Positions 8,706 to 40,939 of a DNA stretch of 64,000 nucleotides are shown piece after piece. Position 1 is the stretch's first letter, and each line of letters starts with the position of its first letter. The translations under genes were made by a program, and so were the position numbers. The stretch is from Callorhinchus milii (lineage: Eukaryota): the NCBI RefSeq assembly GCF_018977255.1, contig NW_024704742.1, positions 33,482,001 to 33,546,000 of the forward strand, written 5' to 3'. The notes beneath the pieces were generated by a model. The model did no database searches. It was not told where the DNA came from and worked only from the letters and a program-made list of their open reading frames with translations.

Positions 8706-8964
8706 AGTGAAACACCAACTTTATTTGGGGGATTGTTGGCCAGGACACCGGGAGAAACTCCCTGCTTTTTTCCAATAGTGCCATGGGATCTTTAACATCC
8801 ACCTGAACAGGCAGATTTAGCTTAACAAAGTTTGGAGTCTCCAATAGTATAACAAGCTCCATCCCTAAAGGCTTAGCCTACACTATGTGAGTTCAAAGAC
8901 ACCAGGTGGGGTTTGAACCCACAATCATCTGACTCAGAGGCGAAAGTGCTACCAACTGAGCCAG
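8706..8964 (-). mobile_element. Deu-domain-like tRNA SINE, family B
   Basis: Minus-strand head TGGCTCAGTTGGTAGCAC...GGTTCAAACC (A/B boxes). Core GGACACCGGGAGAAACTCC...GCCATGGGATCTTTAACATCCACCTGAACAGGCAGA resembles DeuSINE/SacSINE1 (from recall). Confidence 0.75.
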
Positions 8965-9959
8965 TATTAGAACTATTAGAAAGAGTTTCTCTCAGTGTGC
9001 AAATTAATTAGATATTCATTGTGTGGCTGTTTGTGGAACCTCAATGTGTCAAAAACTCTGCCCTATTTGCCTATGAAAACAGTCACTACACTTGATTGTA
9101 ATAACAAATTATGCTTTTGAAACATTTTCAGATGTATGTTGTGGTTAAGGGCTATCAAAAATGCAGGTTGCATTTCTATCTCTGTGTGTCTCATGGTCAA
9201 AATCAAAATCCAAGTGCTCATCCCCAGTGAATAGTACAGAATATTGATGTGGAAAATCTCCACAATCATTTGGATATTTAATATTAGTTGTCAGAAAAAA
9301 CAGTTCCTGAATATCCTGCACTTTCACAGAATTTCTGCAAGCAGCTTTCAATACAACTTAAAAATGCATTATCATAAATCTGCTAAGTTAATAATTAATA
9401 GGCTTAGCTAGCTTAAAGAAACATATCAATCTAGTAAAAGCGTTTTTTTAAAAAGCATTCAAACAAAATGAGAAGAGATAAAAGGGGTGTATTATACATG
9501 TTGTGTAAACCATATGTAAACATATGTGTACAGGTTGAATTGCAGATGCCCTTAATTTTGTAAATTAAAATCAGTTGAAATATTACATGCAATTGGTGCT
9601 AATTATATAATAAAGGCAACCTGTAGTTCCCTCTGTACACACGATTTGCACAATAGGCAAACAGAACTCCCTTTTGGGCTGGAAAAGATAAAGTTTTCAA
9701 AAAAATGGAGCAAATCAGGTGAGGAGTCAAAGCATCAACAAAGAAGCCAGTGTTATTCACTTGCTTAAGTATCCGTGGGTCCATCTCCATGTTAAATCAG
9801 GTTCATTCAAGTCAGGTGTAACCTCCTGACCTGGTTTTACCAAGAAATATCAGTGGCATTGAAAGAACAAATTATAGAAGAATTTTTTTTGTTTAAAATC
9901 AGAAGCAATGAGAGTGTCATGGTAGTTTTCTGCAGGGGAGGAAGGGTTGTCCTCCCATT

Positions 9960-25244: not shown

Positions 25245-25496
25245 CTCGACTTCAAGATCCTCACAGTTCTGTTCAAATCCCTTCACTCTCTGGCACCTCC
25301 CTACCTCTCTGACCTCCTCACTCCCCAATCCACCACCCAGCGCCTCAGCTCGACTGGCACTGGCTCTTCAACCATGCTTACAGCCACCGACCCCCACTCC
25401 CCACTCGGCTCGGAGTCAGTTTCCGCCACTGTTAAGGCGCTCTGAAACCCTACCCTGCATGGAGGCTGCTATATAAGTGCAAGTTGTTGTTGTTGG
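25245..25496 (+). mobile_element. Internally deleted L2 subfamily B 3' fragment
   Basis: GACTTCAAGATCCTCAC start, an internal jump, and a (GTT)n tail. Confidence 0.85.
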
Positions 25497-29242: not shown

Positions 29243-29965
29243 TCAAGCCTCGATGAATGTGTGTGTGAGGGTTTCGGCAGCCTGTGGTGTGAAACAGTGG
29301 TGGAGCTGGGCGATGTTGCAGAGGTGGGGGAAGGTAGAGCGGGTGATGGCACAGTTGTGGGATAGAACAGATAGTTGAGGGTCAAACAAGATGCCAAGGT
29401 TCTGGACTGGCTTAGTAAGGTGGAATGTGCAACCATGGATGGTGATGCTGTCAGCGCCTGAGGTGTGGAGGTGCTGACGGGAACCAATCAGGAGGGCCTC
29501 GGTCTTGTTGGCATTCAACTGAAGAAAGTTAGCTCTCATCCAGGACTTGATGTCTGACAGACATTCAGTCAGCACAGCAGTGGTCCTGGAGTCGAGGGTG
29601 GAGGCAGAGATGTACAGTTGGGTGTCATCCGCATACGTGTGGAAGTTGACCTCATGTCTGCGGATGATGTCACCAAGAGGGAGCATATAGATATTGAAAA
29701 GGAGGGAACCAAGAACAGAGCCCTGAGGAAGACCGCACAAAACGGTGAGGGGGATAGAGGGGAAATCGTTTGCGGAAATGAAGTGGAGGCGGTGTGAGAG
29801 GTACGATCTGAACCAGTCAAGGACAGAGCCGTGAAGATTGAGGTCAGAGGAGATGCGGTGGATGAGGATAGAGTGGTCAATGGTATCGAAGGCAGCAGAG
29901 ATGTCAAGGAGGACAAGGAGGCAAATGGTGCCCTGGTTGCAGATGGTCAGAATGTCATTTGTCAC
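29243..29965 (-). pseudogene. Non-LTR reverse transcriptase ORF2 fragment (240 aa) of the L2 copy
   Basis: Canonical RT motifs including YADD; lacks the N-terminal endonuclease and is broken by frameshifts. Confidence 0.9.
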
Positions 29966-31424
29966 TTTGACCAGAGCTGTTTCTGTGATGTGGGCGGCAC
30001 AGAAACCCGATTGGGAGGGTTTTGTGAAGGGAGTGGCAGGAGAGGAAGCTGGGAAGCCAGCTCGTTCAACAACTTCTCCCAGGACCTTGGAGAGGAAAGG
30101 GAGGGCTGAGATGGGGCGATAGTTTGAGACTCACTGTGAAGTGTAGTGACTGTATATTTTGTGAGCAAATCTGTTGAGAAATTGTCAATTTTCACAACAT
30201 ATTTTGTTTGCGCATCTGAATGGAATGTAGATCTGGTAGCTGGAATCATAACCGGGCTTGATATCCAAGCCACTAAATAAGAGAAGGGATCTCTGTGCTT
30301 GCGTGGGATCAAAGTGTGGGATTAATGAAATAAATAGACGTATATTTTTTAAGTACAGTGCAAAACATGGAATGTTGTATTAGAGCAAATGCGTCTTGTT
30401 TTCTATTCTGTGCAGTCATGCATCACTGTTCAGCTCTATCTAATTAAATATTTCAACTGTACCAGTCTGTAGTGATTCCTGTTGCATTTTGTGCTCATCA
30501 CTCTTTCAGCAATAAACCCAAAGGTCAGATTACTAACAAGAAGATAATTATAGGCTTTTATATTGATGGGAAAAGTGAACCGGATGAAAATCAAATGCTA
30601 ATGAATTTTACTCCATAAGCATAGGGAACTTAATTAAAGGAGCATCCTAAACCAGACTGTGCATATGGAACTTTTTATATGTCGGAAGATAAATGTAAGT
30701 TTTTTTCTCCAATTTTCATGCAGCCTATATAAATTGTCTTTCGTGTTTCATATTTCAAATATTTCCAAACAAAGGAACATCTGGCCTGATTATAAAGATG
30801 GTCAATATTTTAACAAAATAATGTTAATGCTTTGTCTGAGATTGGATATGCTGACTTTGTATGCTGAGAGAATTTGCAGGCTAGAGTACAGTTTTAGCAT
30901 TGTCTATTTCATTTGTGAGCATCTTATCCAAAGTGGGGCTTCATACATTACCTTTGTGGTGAAGTTGGATGCGGCAGGGATTGGTGGGGGGGTGTTGGTG
31001 ATCCTACCATGATCAGTCAATTATTGATTAATTATTAAATGGATTCAATCACACTTATCATCCTGCGCTATCAAAATTATCTGGTTGAGTCCAGGAAACT
31101 ACAGCTTAATGCTGTGATGGAGAGGTTAGGATGGGTGTTGTGGAAGGATGAGATCAGATGAGCTGAAGGTGATTCTTCATCCGCACCAATCTTGTGTGAT
31201 CTTATGACCTCTCACTGTTCACCAAATTTCTTCTATTGATCTCCCTACTTCAGTGGAGAGTCGCTATTTGGTCTCTCTCCTTGTACTAAGCAACCACTCC
31301 GATGACATCAATTTTGGATTCATTGAGAAGCTGCTTGATAGAAACAACCCCCACACCCCCCCATCATCAAAACCAGGATTTGCGTAGCCCTAGATGGTGA
31401 TCTGAAGGCTTCCCAGCATGGAAA

Positions 31425-32095: not shown

Positions 32096-33392
32096 GACTA
32101 CAGTATTAAATCTTGTTTTGCACATAATTTGAAAGTCATACTCCAATAATCAGATTCCTGATGGAACTAATTTATTTGAAAAATATTTATCTGTTATCTG
32201 AAGTATAGTTTACCCTTTTTTCTTTACCTCCTGCTGCATTTGCATTTGGAAATTTGGATTTCTCTTTCCCCATTTGCAAGCTGTCCCCATCTCCGCCACA
32301 ATGACATGCCCAGTTAGGAGAAAGGGCCAACAGAACTGGAGATATTTGGGTTTAAAAATAATAATGCTGCACTTGCATTCATCACGTCATTGAGATGTCT
32401 CAAAGCACTTTGCAGGATTGACTGTGTATTTTATAGGCGAACGTGGTTTTGATGTGTTCTCCTACGTGAGGGCATTATGTAAATGCAAGTTGTAGAAGTA
32501 ATTTAGAGGAGTTTGCAGGACACATACACTTGGCAAAGATATCTAGGAAAGGCTGGCCTTACACCAGTCAAGGGCAAGTGAAAGGGTCCCTCCAGCAAAC
32601 AGATGATAATCTGATTGAACACATCACCCAACTTGCTGGTTGGCTGCAAAGTCCACTAAGGACCAAAGTGAAGGGGAGGCAAGCCCACATATTATACACA
32701 TTAGTGCTTGCTGGAGCCTACACAAATGATCTAAGGCATTTGCGTTATATTAGTATGAGATACTTTGATATTCCCCGGAAAGGTCAATAAAATAAACGTT
32801 AAGATTGCTACCTCCAAAGAAAAATCCAAGATGGTGGCAAACATCTTGAGAATGGGCTTTGGAGTCAACCGTTGTGCTGAGGTCAGGAGTAGCAGATTCA
32901 TGCCTAAAGCCAGTCCTTCCTGATTCTCAAACTAAGACATCAAGTGGCCACATAATTGTCAACAACGTGCTAATTAACACTTCCCAGGTTGCAGTATTCA
33001 CCAACGTTTGTTCCAACTGAAGTTATGACTCTTTTTTTGCTGCAATTCCAAAAACTCAAAGCAGCACATTGCCAAATCAGCTCGCTTTGACTCCATCATT
33101 TTCCCATTATAGAACTGCATGGAGAAGCAACGAGAGATCCAACTGCAACTCAGGTCCTGAGCAATTCATAGCCAGGAAAAGTAGCTGATTTACAACTCGT
33201 GTGGCCTCCTGGGGCAAGCTTGACTAGGAAACAGACTTAGATTAAAAGCAAATATTAGGCGATTCCCAACATCTGTTAATCCGTTAAATATGTTCATATC
33301 TAAAATGACAGACTGAAACAACTCCTTTAAGTGGCAATGCAACAACAACTTGCATTTATATAGCGCCTTTCACGTCAGGAGGACATCCAATG

Positions 33393-33634: not shown

Positions 33635-34786
33635 TAATTTCTTGAATCCGATTGCATTTCACACCATAAATTCTTGGTCTGGAGAGGTTTCTAATTGCAA
33701 GTGGGTATAAATGGTGAGGGCAAAGTAAACTATGGTACTGTAACAATTAATTGTAGATATCCACATCCCTTGTTCATCCAGAGGTACCATGACTCGTGTT
33801 CATCCAATACATGTACCGGATGAGGAATCTGCTCCTGCCCATTCCCTGCCTCAGGTGGTTAGAGGAAGAGAATCAGTTTAGTTCAGATCATTAGATTTGA
33901 CCTGGTAGAGCCTCTCTGTGTCAGCCACATGTTAAATGCATCCTAATGTAATCAGCAGCTAATTGTTTACAAACTGCAATGCTCAGAGAAACTCACTTTC
34001 TAATGGAACATGCTTGGCCACCCTAAATAAGAAATAAAAGCAGGAGATCTGCACATGAAAATCAGGCCGACTGAGTTTTACCTCTTCTTTCCCTCTGTGG
34101 TTCAGCAGTCAACAATAATTGAGGGTGAGCACAGCTGGGTCATAAAACTCTGATCCAAATTGAACTGAATTGGTTTAATCTGCCCAGAGTCATGCTTTAG
34201 TCACCTGTTTCAGATTTCTTCTGAAAAGTAGACCTCTCCGTTTATCAAAGTGTTTGCACAGTGTGCACATCACAGCGCAGTCTGCGAGTACGTAGTGCAG
34301 CTTAGTCACATGCGCTATATGCTGTGACTCCACATGCTCACTGGTTCAAAGCTGGGTCGCAGGGGGACAGGCAGAGCCACTTTAGGCTGAGTCACTGAGA
34401 TCCTATAATAAGGACACAGGACAGACACATGCTGCCATGACTTATAGCTGCTGAAGAGACACCTCTTAATGTTATCACAAGGTCATATCACCCCACTAAT
34501 ACTATACTATGCTCACGTTCTCCAAGTTTACAGTAACTAATCTACATTAGGCAAGCATATCTGCTTTGACTCCCCCAAATTATTAATTTTGTATAAATTA
34601 CATATAAATATATACATTAAATATCCAGAACGGGTTTCATTACTAACTGATAAATGTGCTGTATACTCTTTTACTCAAATAGTTATAGTTTAGTATAAAT
34701 ATATCACAATGTTAAGATAACGTCCTGATAAATGGTGGCCACTGATCAAGTGGCCATGATGTGACTTTACCACACAATGCCAAGTG

Positions 34787-34881
34787 CAGACTCTCTAACC
34801 TTAGTGTGAGTTCCCCACTGGTTAGGTTGACCTGAGGTCAATTTAACCGGCCAAGATCTGAGAATAAGGTTAGGGAATCTG
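34787..34881. repeat. Imperfect 95-bp palindrome
   Basis: 47-bp arms align without gaps (about 34/47 matches) around a single central G (TTGACCT-G-AGGTCAA). Confidence 0.8.
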
Positions 34882-34966
34882 AGCCTGACACGTCTTCGCA
34901 AACCATTAACAATAACTGTAAAGATTTCTCTCAAAGCAGAATTATAAAATGTCAGGAAAGCAGAAC

Positions 34967-35065
34967 AGGTACCTTCTGTAACATTGTGCTCATCTTCTCA
35001 TGTCAGTTCCTCATAATAATGTTCATTTACTTACCTGAAAAGAAACAAAATAGAAGGTTAGTCAC
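34967..35065 (-). other. Candidate recursive splice site (AG|GT ratchet point at 35035|35034) followed by a 62-nt RS-exon (35034-34973)
   Basis: Minus strand reads gTGACTAACcttctattttgtttcttttCAG|GTAAGTaaatgaacattattatgaggaactgacatgagaagatgagcacaatgttacagaag|GTACCT. Branch A is at 35058 (-24), followed by a pyrimidine tract and a 3'ss abutting a consensus 5'ss, with a weaker downstream 5'ss. Confidence 0.65.
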
Positions 35066-36283
35066 AAACATTTGCAAGACGCATTTTTAAAAAAAAAAAA
35101 AGTTGTGCAATTGGCTGACAAGAGGAAGTCAGCCCACATGATAAAAAAAATTAACATAAAGGCTGATACTTTCGCACCCAGAGAACATTTAAGGTGTTTG
35201 TACAGATATTGTTTGTATGGAGGCGTTTGAATAGATGGTTGCTGTGAGATATTTACTTCCTGGAAACAGCATGCAGTGTTATTTTGCCAGCAAAAGTCAA
35301 CGTAGGGGAGCTAAATTCAGTGCAGGTGCAGAAATAATAATAATCCCTGCACTTGATATAGTGCTTTTCATGTCAGAAGCACATCTCAAAGCAGATCACA
35401 GCATATACAGTGAAGTGTAGCGACTTATTGCATGCAACAATGTCCCACAAACAGACGTGAAGTGAATGTCCAATTTTATTTGAGCAATTAATGGGCAGGA
35501 CATATGGAGAAACTCCCAGCTTGAGAAATTTATCCTGTGAGCTGCCACAGTTCAGTAAGTATTGTAGTGCTGTAATACAGTCTAATCCTTGGTTTGGAAT
35601 ACAACAAGAAAACATAGTGACCCCTCAGTGTATAGGTTCAGGACACGTCCTGCTCGCAGCATTGATTGTCTGGCTTCCTAGGCACAGTAGCCTCCAGTTC
35701 AGTGGTGTCCCTGGCAACCGCTGAAAATGCTTGCGAGAGCAGTCACCACTGACCTGCCAGTTTCCTGCGCTCAGAGCTCAGACCTTAGACCTCACCGACG
35801 TCAGTCGTGACCCCAAAGTGCTGATAGGCAGCCACACTACAACATTCTCCGTTATAATACTGCGTCTCATTTTAGGCCCCCCCCCAGCCCATTCACCGCA
35901 TTATGATGGAGTTGGATTGTAGTAATCTAGGGCAGTAAGCAAGTGGCTGTCTGCAGCCTACTTCCGCAAAGGATTAAGTAAACTGTTGAGTAGAATACGT
36001 TGCTAAAATAAATCTCTCCTAAATTAGAGGATTAGGCACTGGCATCTACATTCATGTGGTTAAAGTGTAATCTGGCTCCTCGCTATTACCTTTTACTCTT
36101 TCGTAAATTAATGCTGCTCTTTTGTTATATGTTGTGAATTGATGTCTAAGAAGTCTGAAATCAGTTGCTCTGCAGGTCCAAAGCCCTTCCTAATGTATAA
36201 AGCAGCAAACGTTAAAGAATCAGATTATTGTAAAACCATTTGTTCTGCATCAAAATTATGTAATCATAAATGATGCAGTAGCA

Positions 36284-39579: not shown

Positions 39580-40035
39580 GCGCGCACACTATGGACGAGT
39601 GTTTCGGCTGAGTCTGGGGTGAGGTATGGTCAGAGGTGGGCAATGTGGTGGAGGTGTAGAAAGGCGGTCCTGATAAGGGATTGGATGTGGGGAAGGAACG
39701 ACAGCTGTGGGTTGAACCTGACTCCAAGCTTCCGCACTGGTTCAGTAAGTCTGTGGGATAGGCCGGGGAGGTTGACGAGATCAAAGCCGCAGGACAGAAG
39801 AGGTTGAGGGGAGCCAATAAGTATGGCTTCCGTCTCGTCGACATTTAATTGTAGGAAGTTTTCGCTCATCCAGGCCCTGATGTCCGCCAGACAAGCTGAG
39901 AGAACATCGGTGGACCTGGAGTCGCAGCTGGAGGAGAAGTAGATTTGTGTGTCATCCGCATACATGTGGAAGTTTACCCCAGGTCTGCGGATGACATCGC
40001 CAAGAGGGAGCATATAGATGAGGAAGAGTAGGGGG
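39580..40035 (-). mobile_element. L2 subfamily B internal RT fragment
   Basis: ORF 39630-40013 [10 protein letters not shown]...[11 protein letters not shown]. Confidence 0.88.
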
Positions 40036-40939
40036 AGTGAGGGTGGGGGCTATAGTATATCTGCTGTACTATATTGTAAAGGGCACAATCTTCACATTAA
40101 AAAAAATTGCCAAATATTAATTTTGTTTTATCTATGATACTCAATACCTATCACACAAAACAATGACTTAAAATCACACAGAAACGCATCATTTGCCACA
40201 AGCATGTGGTGTCTTGTCACAGTGAGAACAGCTTTTCCTGCTGTTTAACAGATCGTGGTCATTAAGACAGTGGCCCTTTCAAGAACAGTGCTCAGCACAA
40301 CATTCCAGTCTAGAGCCTGGACCTGGCTTGGTACCAAGCCAGCACCTCGGCACAGCGTCTTTCGCAGTACAAGGCCAGCATCTTGCAATAAAAACTGAAA
40401 GCATTTTATTTATTTTTTTAAAAAATGCCCTTCAGACATCACTTGAAAGAGAGACAGGTTAAAGTTCAGTGTGACTTTTCATCAGGACTTCATCCAACAG
40501 ATTTTAACAAGTAATTCACCACCAGGGCCACATTTATCATTGTGCGCCGGGTTATTCTCTACCAATTGCTACATTTATTCAATATGTCGTTTTGCTCTAA
40601 AAAGGGGTATTTTAATGAATCACTAGATTAAGTTAATCCAAAATTATTACAAATGACATTTCCTTACATTTATTTTTAAGTGGGTGTTGATAAATTTGCT
40701 ACACTCTGCAGAAGCAGTAATAATGTTATATTCGATAGGTATATTATGGGGTGAAACAATGCAATGTGAGATGTTACTCTACACATGAAAGACACAAAAT
40801 ACAATACACATTTATAGAGCACCTTTCCCAACCGGGGATGGGGGGAATGTCTCAAAGTGCTTTACACTGATCGCTGGACCCTCAATCTAAGGAGGTGGGT
40901 AAAAATCAAGCTGTTATTGATTTTATAAGGGATAACAAT

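Follow-up and report, generated by a model that had tools for sequence, protein, structure and literature searches.

A conserved alternative 5' exon of ANK2 in Callorhinchus milii opens with a partial 5' splice site and is a candidate recursive-splicing exon

Introduction

Can an exon that supplies the start codon of one protein isoform also act as a recursive-splicing exon in a very long intron? This question is raised by a locus of Callorhinchus milii, where an acceptor directly abuts a consensus donor on the minus strand of a 64,000-nt stretch of DNA (NCBI RefSeq assembly GCF_018977255.1, contig NW_024704742.1; G000:C1:33482001-33546000, hereafter the window). A preliminary description of the locus had interpreted this motif as a recursive splice (RS) site followed by a poison RS-exon in the long intron of a neural gene.

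Juxtaposed acceptors and donors are reportedly the hallmark of the ratchet points of Drosophila, associated with Hatton 1998, Burnette 2005, and Duff 2015, through which long introns are removed stepwise. Fly ratchet points are far more numerous than the vertebrate sites, their exons are mostly cryptic, and the lineage differs. Among vertebrate genes, ANK3 is said to have been given a recursive splice site in Sibley 2015, and the term RS-exon is used here in the sense of that work. ANK2, the paralogue of ANK3, has several alternative first exons and ranks among the major genes for autism and arrhythmia. Approximately 20 RS sites have been validated in mouse brain, in a small set of long neuronal genes that includes ANK3 (PMC8797253).

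Results and Discussion

Anatomy of the motif and its expectation by chance

Read directly, the minus strand of the window runs tgtgacTAAC cttctattttgtttcttttCAG|GTAAGTaaatga across the site, a junction that can also be written as tgtgacTAACcttctattttgtttcttttCAG|GTAAGTaaatga. The following elements were identified (positions are those of the window):

35057..35064, minus strand: branch-point-like TGACTAAC, with the branch A at 35058, -24 nt from the first base of the exon (read directly)
35038..35056, minus strand: polypyrimidine tract, with C or T at 18/20 bases preceding the AG
35035..35037, minus strand: 3' splice site (acceptor) CAG| (read directly)
35029..35034, minus strand: GTAAGT, a partial 5' splice site formed by exon bases 1-6 (RS-5'ss; read directly)
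34967..34975, minus strand: downstream 5' splice site AAG|GTACCT, junction at 34973|34972 (read directly)

Between the branch-point-like TGACTAAC and the acceptor AG at 35036-35035, the minus strand contains no AG. A strong 3' splice site, composed of branch point, pyrimidine tract, and AG, abuts the GT of a 5' splice-site motif at 35035|35034, as expected of an RS site. The preliminary description had placed the branch point, pyrimidine tract, acceptor, and GTAAGT at these positions, and direct reading bore out all of its coordinates. It had also claimed a weaker donor 62 nt further on and, at the head of the intervening segment, 12 nt that contain a stop in each of the three frames; the donor was found at 34973|34972, the segment measured 62 nt, and the stops were seen in a three-frame translation of GTAAGTAAATGA.

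We then compared the motif with others nearby. Both strands of the window held 2 AGGTAAGT sites and 8 YAGGTRAG sites, and the flagged site alone among the latter had more than 12/20 upstream pyrimidines (18/20). Within the 264 kb of sequence examined, comprising the window and 200 kb on its high-coordinate side, 1/10 AGGTAAGT sites had at least 16/20 pyrimidines. First-order Markov simulations (150 x 64 kb), which served as the null model, yielded an expectation of 0.027 such sites per 64-kb window, corresponding to approximately a few hundred per 1-Gb genome. With a few hundred chance sites per genome, the motif by itself is not significant genome-wide, and the case was therefore built on its context. 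What is significant is the position of the site, 41 nt ahead of a conserved start codon and on the correct strand of ANK2. The 351-nt stretch around the site was single-copy in the 991.5-Mb assembly.

The host gene is ANK2

A genome-wide search for the ZU5 domain revealed a ZU5 exon at G000:C1:33276750-33276992 on the minus strand, with the search match at 33276753-33276977. Its translation had ankyrin-2 as the best match in the PDB (E 1.6e-45; ankyrin-3 scored 2.6e-40) and differed from 4d8o_A at 2 residues over 76 aligned. Among the best 120 database matches, the named entries were all ankyrin-2/ANK2, the exceptions being one unnamed product and one 'hypothetical protein'. When the genome was searched with an ANK2 protein, ankyrin-repeat exons were found between 33376927 and 33267649, again on the minus strand. 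These results identify the host as the orthologue of ANK2 (ankyrin-B), with the window in its 5' part and the motif on its coding strand. Two exons delimit the intron that contains the site:

G000:C1:33619738-33619815 (L010:3738-3815), minus strand: coding first exon MASS...RIRQ, ATG...MASSSSSPSSPQGGGTSPNPPDRIRQ|GTGGGT (tblastn and direct reading)
first base 33376927, 102 nt, minus strand: exon 2, 140,045 nt downstream of the 62-nt segment and in frame with the MSTMLQK sequence described below

The first of these, hereafter the RIRQ exon, agrees with the MASPTSPAPEGGASTPPNPPRIRQ start of mammalian ANK2 isoforms, and it was the only credible match for 15 N-terminal queries in tblastn searches of the window plus 200 kb upstream. 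From the site to the La/RRM gene listed below there is a single unique CpG-rich patch, flanked by long CA/GA/CT simple repeats, and the RIRQ exon lies in it. Exon 2 ends in ...DINTSNQ, as does its counterpart in Heterodontus, the one shark ANK2 protein compared. The window and the 200 kb upstream of it yielded no first exon of the MMNED..., MAHAAASIKK..., or MGNAP... type, and the same 264 kb contained no motif of the ankyrin repeats or of exon 2. The 105 kb between the window and exon 2 may contain further ANK2 first exons or cassettes.

The intron between the RIRQ exon and exon 2 measures 242,810 nt and is split by the site into 102,703 and 140,107 nt, and the gene extends at least from 33619815 to 33267649, or approximately 352 kb. 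RS sites are found in long genes, in a first or second intron that is itself very long, and the present site shares this setting. The preliminary description had placed the window inside a very long intron of a neural-type gene and had proposed that the host be identified from the flanking assembly; identification through the ZU5 exon, the ankyrin-repeat exons, and the N-terminal exons established this intron as the 242.8-kb 5' intron of ANK2, a neural and cardiac scaffold gene.

An immunoglobulin-domain host gene was also considered and rejected, as none of the best 150 of 2190 Ig_3 candidates lay near the window. By Pfam, no coding exon was found in the window except for fragments of LINE reverse transcriptase; the scan covered the 150 longest of 1198 unique open frames, as well as 61/97 minus-strand frames at 150-200 kb and three frames of the window. 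On the high-coordinate side of ANK2, Pfam identified three further genes:

L015:6165-6356 and 8898-9143, minus strand: La+RRM gene (LARP7-like)
L018:452-757, L019:6939-7334, and L020:2974-3309, plus strand: GRF-zinc-finger/AAA_12 helicase gene (ZGRF1-like)
L022:2760-4046, plus strand: single-exon neurogenin-type bHLH gene (Pfam HLH, E 3e-17)

LARP7, ZGRF1, and NEUROG2 are likewise the neighbors of human ANK2. The LARP7-like and ZGRF1-like genes stand head to head around a CpG island at approximately L016:2700-3450, in the order that they also have beside human ANK2. The bHLH gene lies within another CpG island, approximately 221 kb from the site. A long TG/CA-rich simple sequence precedes the bHLH frame and produces spurious long open frames on both strands.

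The 62-nt segment is an alternative start exon

The segment between the acceptor and the downstream donor was examined for its coding content, and the following features were recorded:

34973..35034, minus strand: 62-nt alternative 5' exon of ANK2, a candidate RS-exon (alignment to a primate internal exon)
34973..34993, minus strand: start codon plus six codons, MSTMLQK, phase 0 to the donor (translation)
ATG 35026 to TGA 35003, minus strand: first short upstream reading frame (read from the exon sequence)
ATG 35001 to TGA 34990, minus strand: second short upstream reading frame (read from the exon sequence)

The last 21 nt of the exon, ATG AGC ACA ATG TTA CAG AAG, encode MSTMLQK in phase with exon 2. 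The pattern M[STA][STA]MLQK occurred once in six frames of the 264 kb, and GTACCT follows it directly, such that the donor AAG|GTACCT that closes the putative RS-exon also closes the MSTMLQK frame. The exon lies between the RIRQ exon and exon 2 on the strand of ANK2, where an exon for M(S/T)TMLQK is expected. Judged from its sequence, the 62-nt segment is a conserved alternative 5' exon of ANK2 that carries the known alternative N-terminus M(S/T)TMLQK. When the RIRQ exon is joined to it, the product reads RIRQVSK-stop in this genome. No CpG island was found adjoining the 62-nt exon. The stop of the second upstream frame overlaps the start codon of MSTMLQK as ATGA, an arrangement by which re-initiation can be coupled to termination.

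Use and conservation of the exon in other vertebrates

We compared the N-termini of 256 fetched proteins, almost all of which were ankyrin-2, and grouped them as follows:

63/256: start with M(S/T/A)(S/T/A)MLQK, followed by exon 2
28/256: RIRQ joined directly to exon 2, with the exon skipped
11/256: RIRQ followed by an internal exon ending in ...TML(Q/R)K
5/256: RIRQ followed by an unrelated cassette (rodents)
2/256: ...TMLQK reached from a longer upstream frame (Sorex)
147/256: other N-termini or fragments

To judge from these proteins, the orthologous exon has three uses, namely as a start exon, as an internal cassette, and as an exon that is skipped. Of the internal forms, 10 were primate isoforms, which carry VSNEKRHEELIFQMTTMLQK (60 nt), and the remaining 1 was from a teleost, Megalops, and carries VSSDQEDRADQVTTMLRK (54 nt). 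All of the internal forms (11/11) have V-S at the head of the exon, corresponding to GTN WSN, and GTAAGT encodes V-S here; in this comparison by protein, V-S elsewhere could be GTN-TCN rather than GTN-AGY. The primate and teleost exons that begin with V-S thus point, indirectly, to conservation of the AG|GT site across species.

The nucleotide sequence was then aligned. The 62 nt were compatible with a degenerate back-translation of the 20-aa primate internal exon at 50/62 columns with two 1-nt gaps, and the alignment scored 16.5, against -20.1+-5.2 for shuffled sequences (maximum 0.3; n=500). This likeness crosses three reading frames of the exon in the present genome, which indicates conservation of nucleotides rather than of protein. 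The exon is deeply conserved and ancient, and its architecture is that of a full RS-exon. A contig of another organism (run X9) covered 34891-35310 with 33 other letters and 3 gaps, and further out, at 35448-35697, the same contig had 35 other letters over 250 bases; this contig shows mild conservation and is not decisive.

These data bear on the proposal of the preliminary description that the segment is a cryptic, non-coding poison exon without a role in mature mRNA. The part of this proposal that concerns joining to the upstream coding exon held: the frame closes as VSK-stop, stops occur in three frames within the first 12 nt, and 62 is not a multiple of 3. The part that denied coding did not hold, as the final 21 nt specify an M(S/T)TMLQK N-terminus that is known from annotated isoforms, is in phase with exon 2, and heads 63/256 of the ANK2 proteins. 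The chance that MSTMLQK plus GT would arise anywhere in the intron was on the order of 1e-5 by a rough codon count. We consider a purely poisonous exon very unlikely.

We regard a functionless chance motif as more improbable still. Such a motif would accord with the simulated expectation per window and with the ratio in the mouse, where 2640 non-RS AGGT sites stand against 20 RS sites (PMC8797253 supplement, S3 Fig legend). However, it would not account for a site that lies exactly 62 nt ahead of the donor of a conserved coding exon, nor for the orthologous exon of primates (60 nt) and of a teleost (54 nt), which is spliced internally at the matching boundary.

A further small 5' cassette of ANK2, VTCPQMKPEAANIEK (45 nt), was observed in proteins P0237-P0239 (primates) and P0003. 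Its first codon is likewise GTN, and the exon that precedes it may be the MTTMLQK exon or the MMNED... first exon. The unrelated cassette that follows RIRQ in rodents has 33 aa.

Contig evidence for use of the acceptor

The sequencing evidence consisted of Logan contigs, each of which has one depth, so that no saw-tooth pattern can be read around the site. No RNA run was listed as containing the 1.2-kb stretch around the site, and runs X5-X7 were only guessed to be RNA. The contigs of X5 and X6 totaled 270 and 217 Mb at depths of 3-10, compared with approximately 960 Mb in the DNA-like run X1; these totals would fit an uneven, transcript-like cover.

In run X5, record 16 (397 letters, depth 7.4) fitted 34725-35034 with one differing letter. 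The fit ended exactly at 35034, and the remaining 87 letters, at an unstated end of the record, belonged elsewhere; the record also continued through the donor at 34973 into the downstream intron. Hence, it looks like a hint of a part-spliced molecule in which the upstream intron is gone and the downstream 140 kb is retained. With approximately 32 piece boundaries of X5 and X6 over 20 kb, the chance that one would match one given base was estimated at approximately 0.002. The fit stopped at 35034 and not at 35037; the neighboring letters were therefore not ...CAG, and the partner was presumably not the RIRQ exon. This single contig from a guessed-RNA run suggests that the acceptor is used in this species; the fit would end at the same base if the contig were chimeric or if position 35035 were heterozygous.

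Comparison with known recursive splice sites

The 20 validated RS sites of mouse brain carry AGGTAAGT in 15/20 cases, have a pyrimidine content of 0.6-1.0, and possess RS-exons of 42-348 nt with a downstream donor (PMC8797253); validated mouse sites are described as lying in a first or second intron, with an intron >51 kb and a gene >294 kb. The preliminary description had claimed that the arrangement is that of vertebrate RS sites with an RS-exon, and the present site matched these features of the mouse sites. The cryptic RS-exons of the mouse (CADM1/CADM2, NTM, OPCML, LSAMP, PDE4D, HS6ST3, ROBO2, and NCAM1) share with the ANK2 site the motif, the range of pyrimidine content (0.9 at the ANK2 site), and the setting in a first or second intron of a long gene. 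Under normal conditions, these mouse exons are reported to be missing from mRNA, whereas the ANK2 exon is present in annotated isoforms of many vertebrates.

The Ank3 RS site of the mouse is located at chr10:69595048 and has a 79-nt RS-exon (PMC8797253). Like the ANK2 site, it belongs to an ankyrin gene, the two genes being paralogous, and follows an alternative first exon within a long 5' intron; both sites have AGGTAAGT, a pyrimidine-rich tract, a short RS-exon, and a weaker downstream donor (AAGGTTCGT, 8.44, in Ank3). By our matching of coordinates, the Ank3 RS-exon would lie 60.8 kb after the upstream exon, within the 172.5-kb gap between first exons 1b and 1c (PMC4449188), and given this location it would not be among the five annotated first exons. 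Unlike the Ank3 RS-exon, the ANK2 exon carries a conserved start codon. The two sites have no detectable sequence likeness, and the 28-mer of the mouse Ank3 RS site had no match at <=3 mismatches in this genome.

A third group for comparison is formed by the annotated RS-exons that are repressed through the exon junction complex (EJC). As described in Blazquez 2018 (PMC6224609), these exons resemble the ANK2 exon in being annotated, in beginning with a partial 5' splice site, and in their donor competition. The ANK2 exon differs from them in also providing a start codon and, in this genome, in not sharing the frame of the coding exon upstream.

The preliminary description had allowed for two origins, namely an orthologue of a known RS site or a new site. 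The site is new with respect to the RS lists searched, which contain the paralogue ANK3 but not ANK2, and the option of an orthologue of a listed site did not stand. Ank2 is not among the 20 mouse-brain RS sites (PMC8797253 supplements), and ANK2 is absent from the supplements of PMC10156609 and from 5 supplementary files of PMC6224609. Zhang 2018 (PMC6110456) does not list it in the tables that have junction or saw-tooth support. In table S10 of the same study, which presents candidates selected by motif plus conservation, ANK2 has at least 18 rows with at least 7 distinct sites in its long 5' intron; among the rows listed, no ANK2 site is at the edge of the exon. The mouse-brain screen and that of Zhang 2018 looked at AGGT sites in introns and may not have scored an annotated alternative exon. 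No report of recursive splicing in connection with ANK2 or with sharks was found in the literature searched.

Donor competition and a proposed mechanism

In Blazquez 2018 (PMC6224609), an exon that recreates a 5' splice site at its junction with the preceding exon is defined as a putative RS-exon, and its fate is said to be set by competition between the recreated site and the exon's own donor. We examined both donors on this basis. The RIRQ exon ends in ...CGCCAG, and its in silico junction with the 62-nt exon reads CAG|GTAAGT, a recreated strong donor that scores 10.86 in the mouse table (PMC8797253 supplement). In the exon's own donor, AAG|GTACCT, both +4 and +5 are C, and the nearest value in the mouse table is that of CAGGTACCA, at 7.88. 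By our count against the U1 sequence, AAG|GTACCT pairs with U1 at 6/9 positions and CAG|GTAAGT at 9/9.

On the basis of these findings, we lean, with slightly better than even confidence, toward the interpretation that the site is the 5' edge of a conserved ANK2 alternative start exon that acts as an RS-exon, as Sibley 2015 and Blazquez 2018 use the term. The exon is probably a stepping stone in the removal of the 243-kb intron. In the proposed mechanism, the exon would be defined by its strong acceptor (TGACTAAC, pyrimidine tract, and CAG) together with its own donor AAG|GTACCT, and would be spliced to an upstream exon. If the upstream exon were the coding first exon (...CAG), the junction would recreate CAG|GTAAGT, which would outcompete the weaker donor 62 nt on, and the exon, reading VSK-stop in the RIRQ frame, would be excised in a second step along with the 140 kb still left. 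If the downstream donor were used, the exon would be kept and would supply the MSTMLQK start. Retention could occur in transcripts that start near the exon or have a non-coding upstream exon, or where the recreated site is masked by a junction complex. The 243-kb intron would thus be cleared in two steps in transcripts from the RIRQ promoter, and retention of the exon in them would give a premature stop. We infer both this second, recursive step and the role that the choice of promoter plays in it.

If this mechanism is correct, a single exon that supplies a start codon and also serves as an RS-exon would tie the promoter used to the N-terminus chosen and to the stepwise excision of the 243-kb intron. 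Should the second step fail to take place, what is left is an ordinary alternative exon whose location was correctly given.

We hold the latter reading to be possible, at clearly less than even. It would make the segment an ordinary alternative or alternatively initiated exon, in which the EJC blocks the recreated donor, or splicing never makes use of it, and skipping results from joining the first exon directly to exon 2; GTAAGT would be kept for another reason, such as a 5' UTR element, the short upstream frames, or splicing enhancers. The distribution of the exon among start (63/256), internal (11/256), and skipped (28/256) forms can be explained with no recursive step, ANK2 is missing from every junction- or saw-tooth-supported RS list searched, and Blazquez 2018 (PMC6224609) reports hundreds of annotated exons that stay in the transcript owing to repression of their recreated 5' splice site by the EJC. 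Nevertheless, the same study reports that a strong recreated site leads to skipping despite the junction complex, and CAG|GTAAGT belongs to the strongest class (10.86), facing a competing donor with C at +4 and +5. A place midway along a 243-kb first intron is also typical of validated sites. Furthermore, V-S has been kept at the first two codons in primates, a teleost, and the present genome, although the middle of the exon differs; its persistence in a genome where the frame is closed points to selection on GT.AG. itself.

Recursive use of the exon, the interpretation that we favor, can be extended to a broader proposal. In this extension, which we put forward tentatively and without expecting it to be right in full, GTAAGT would be a promoter-dependent switch as old as the jawed vertebrates that provides a stepping stone and keeps the alternative N-termini mutually exclusive; the exon would have drifted out of frame in this genome, making the recursive step obligatory for productive mRNA from the RIRQ promoter. 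The first two codons are shared by this fish, a teleost, and primates, which would place such a switch, if it is real, near the origin of the jawed vertebrates.

Repeats in the window

Two fragments of LINE reverse transcriptase were identified in the window:

29243-30130, minus strand: RVT_1 fragment (E 3e-28)
39630-40049, minus strand: RVT_1 fragment (E 4e-8)

The contigs of all four runs reached depths of 1e5-1e6 at 28.3-29.7 kb and at 41-43 kb, which indicates very abundant repeat families. At 25495, 28923, 33340-33373, and 42173, many contigs of all runs linked these places to one another or ended in A/T-rich loose ends, a pattern expected of the edges of repeat copies, not of splicing. 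A further repeat at approximately 35340-35500 (minus strand), 300 nt upstream of the acceptor, had approximately 7-11 other copies in the 264 kb by self-BLAST and broke the DNA contigs; we take it to resemble the tail of a SINE.
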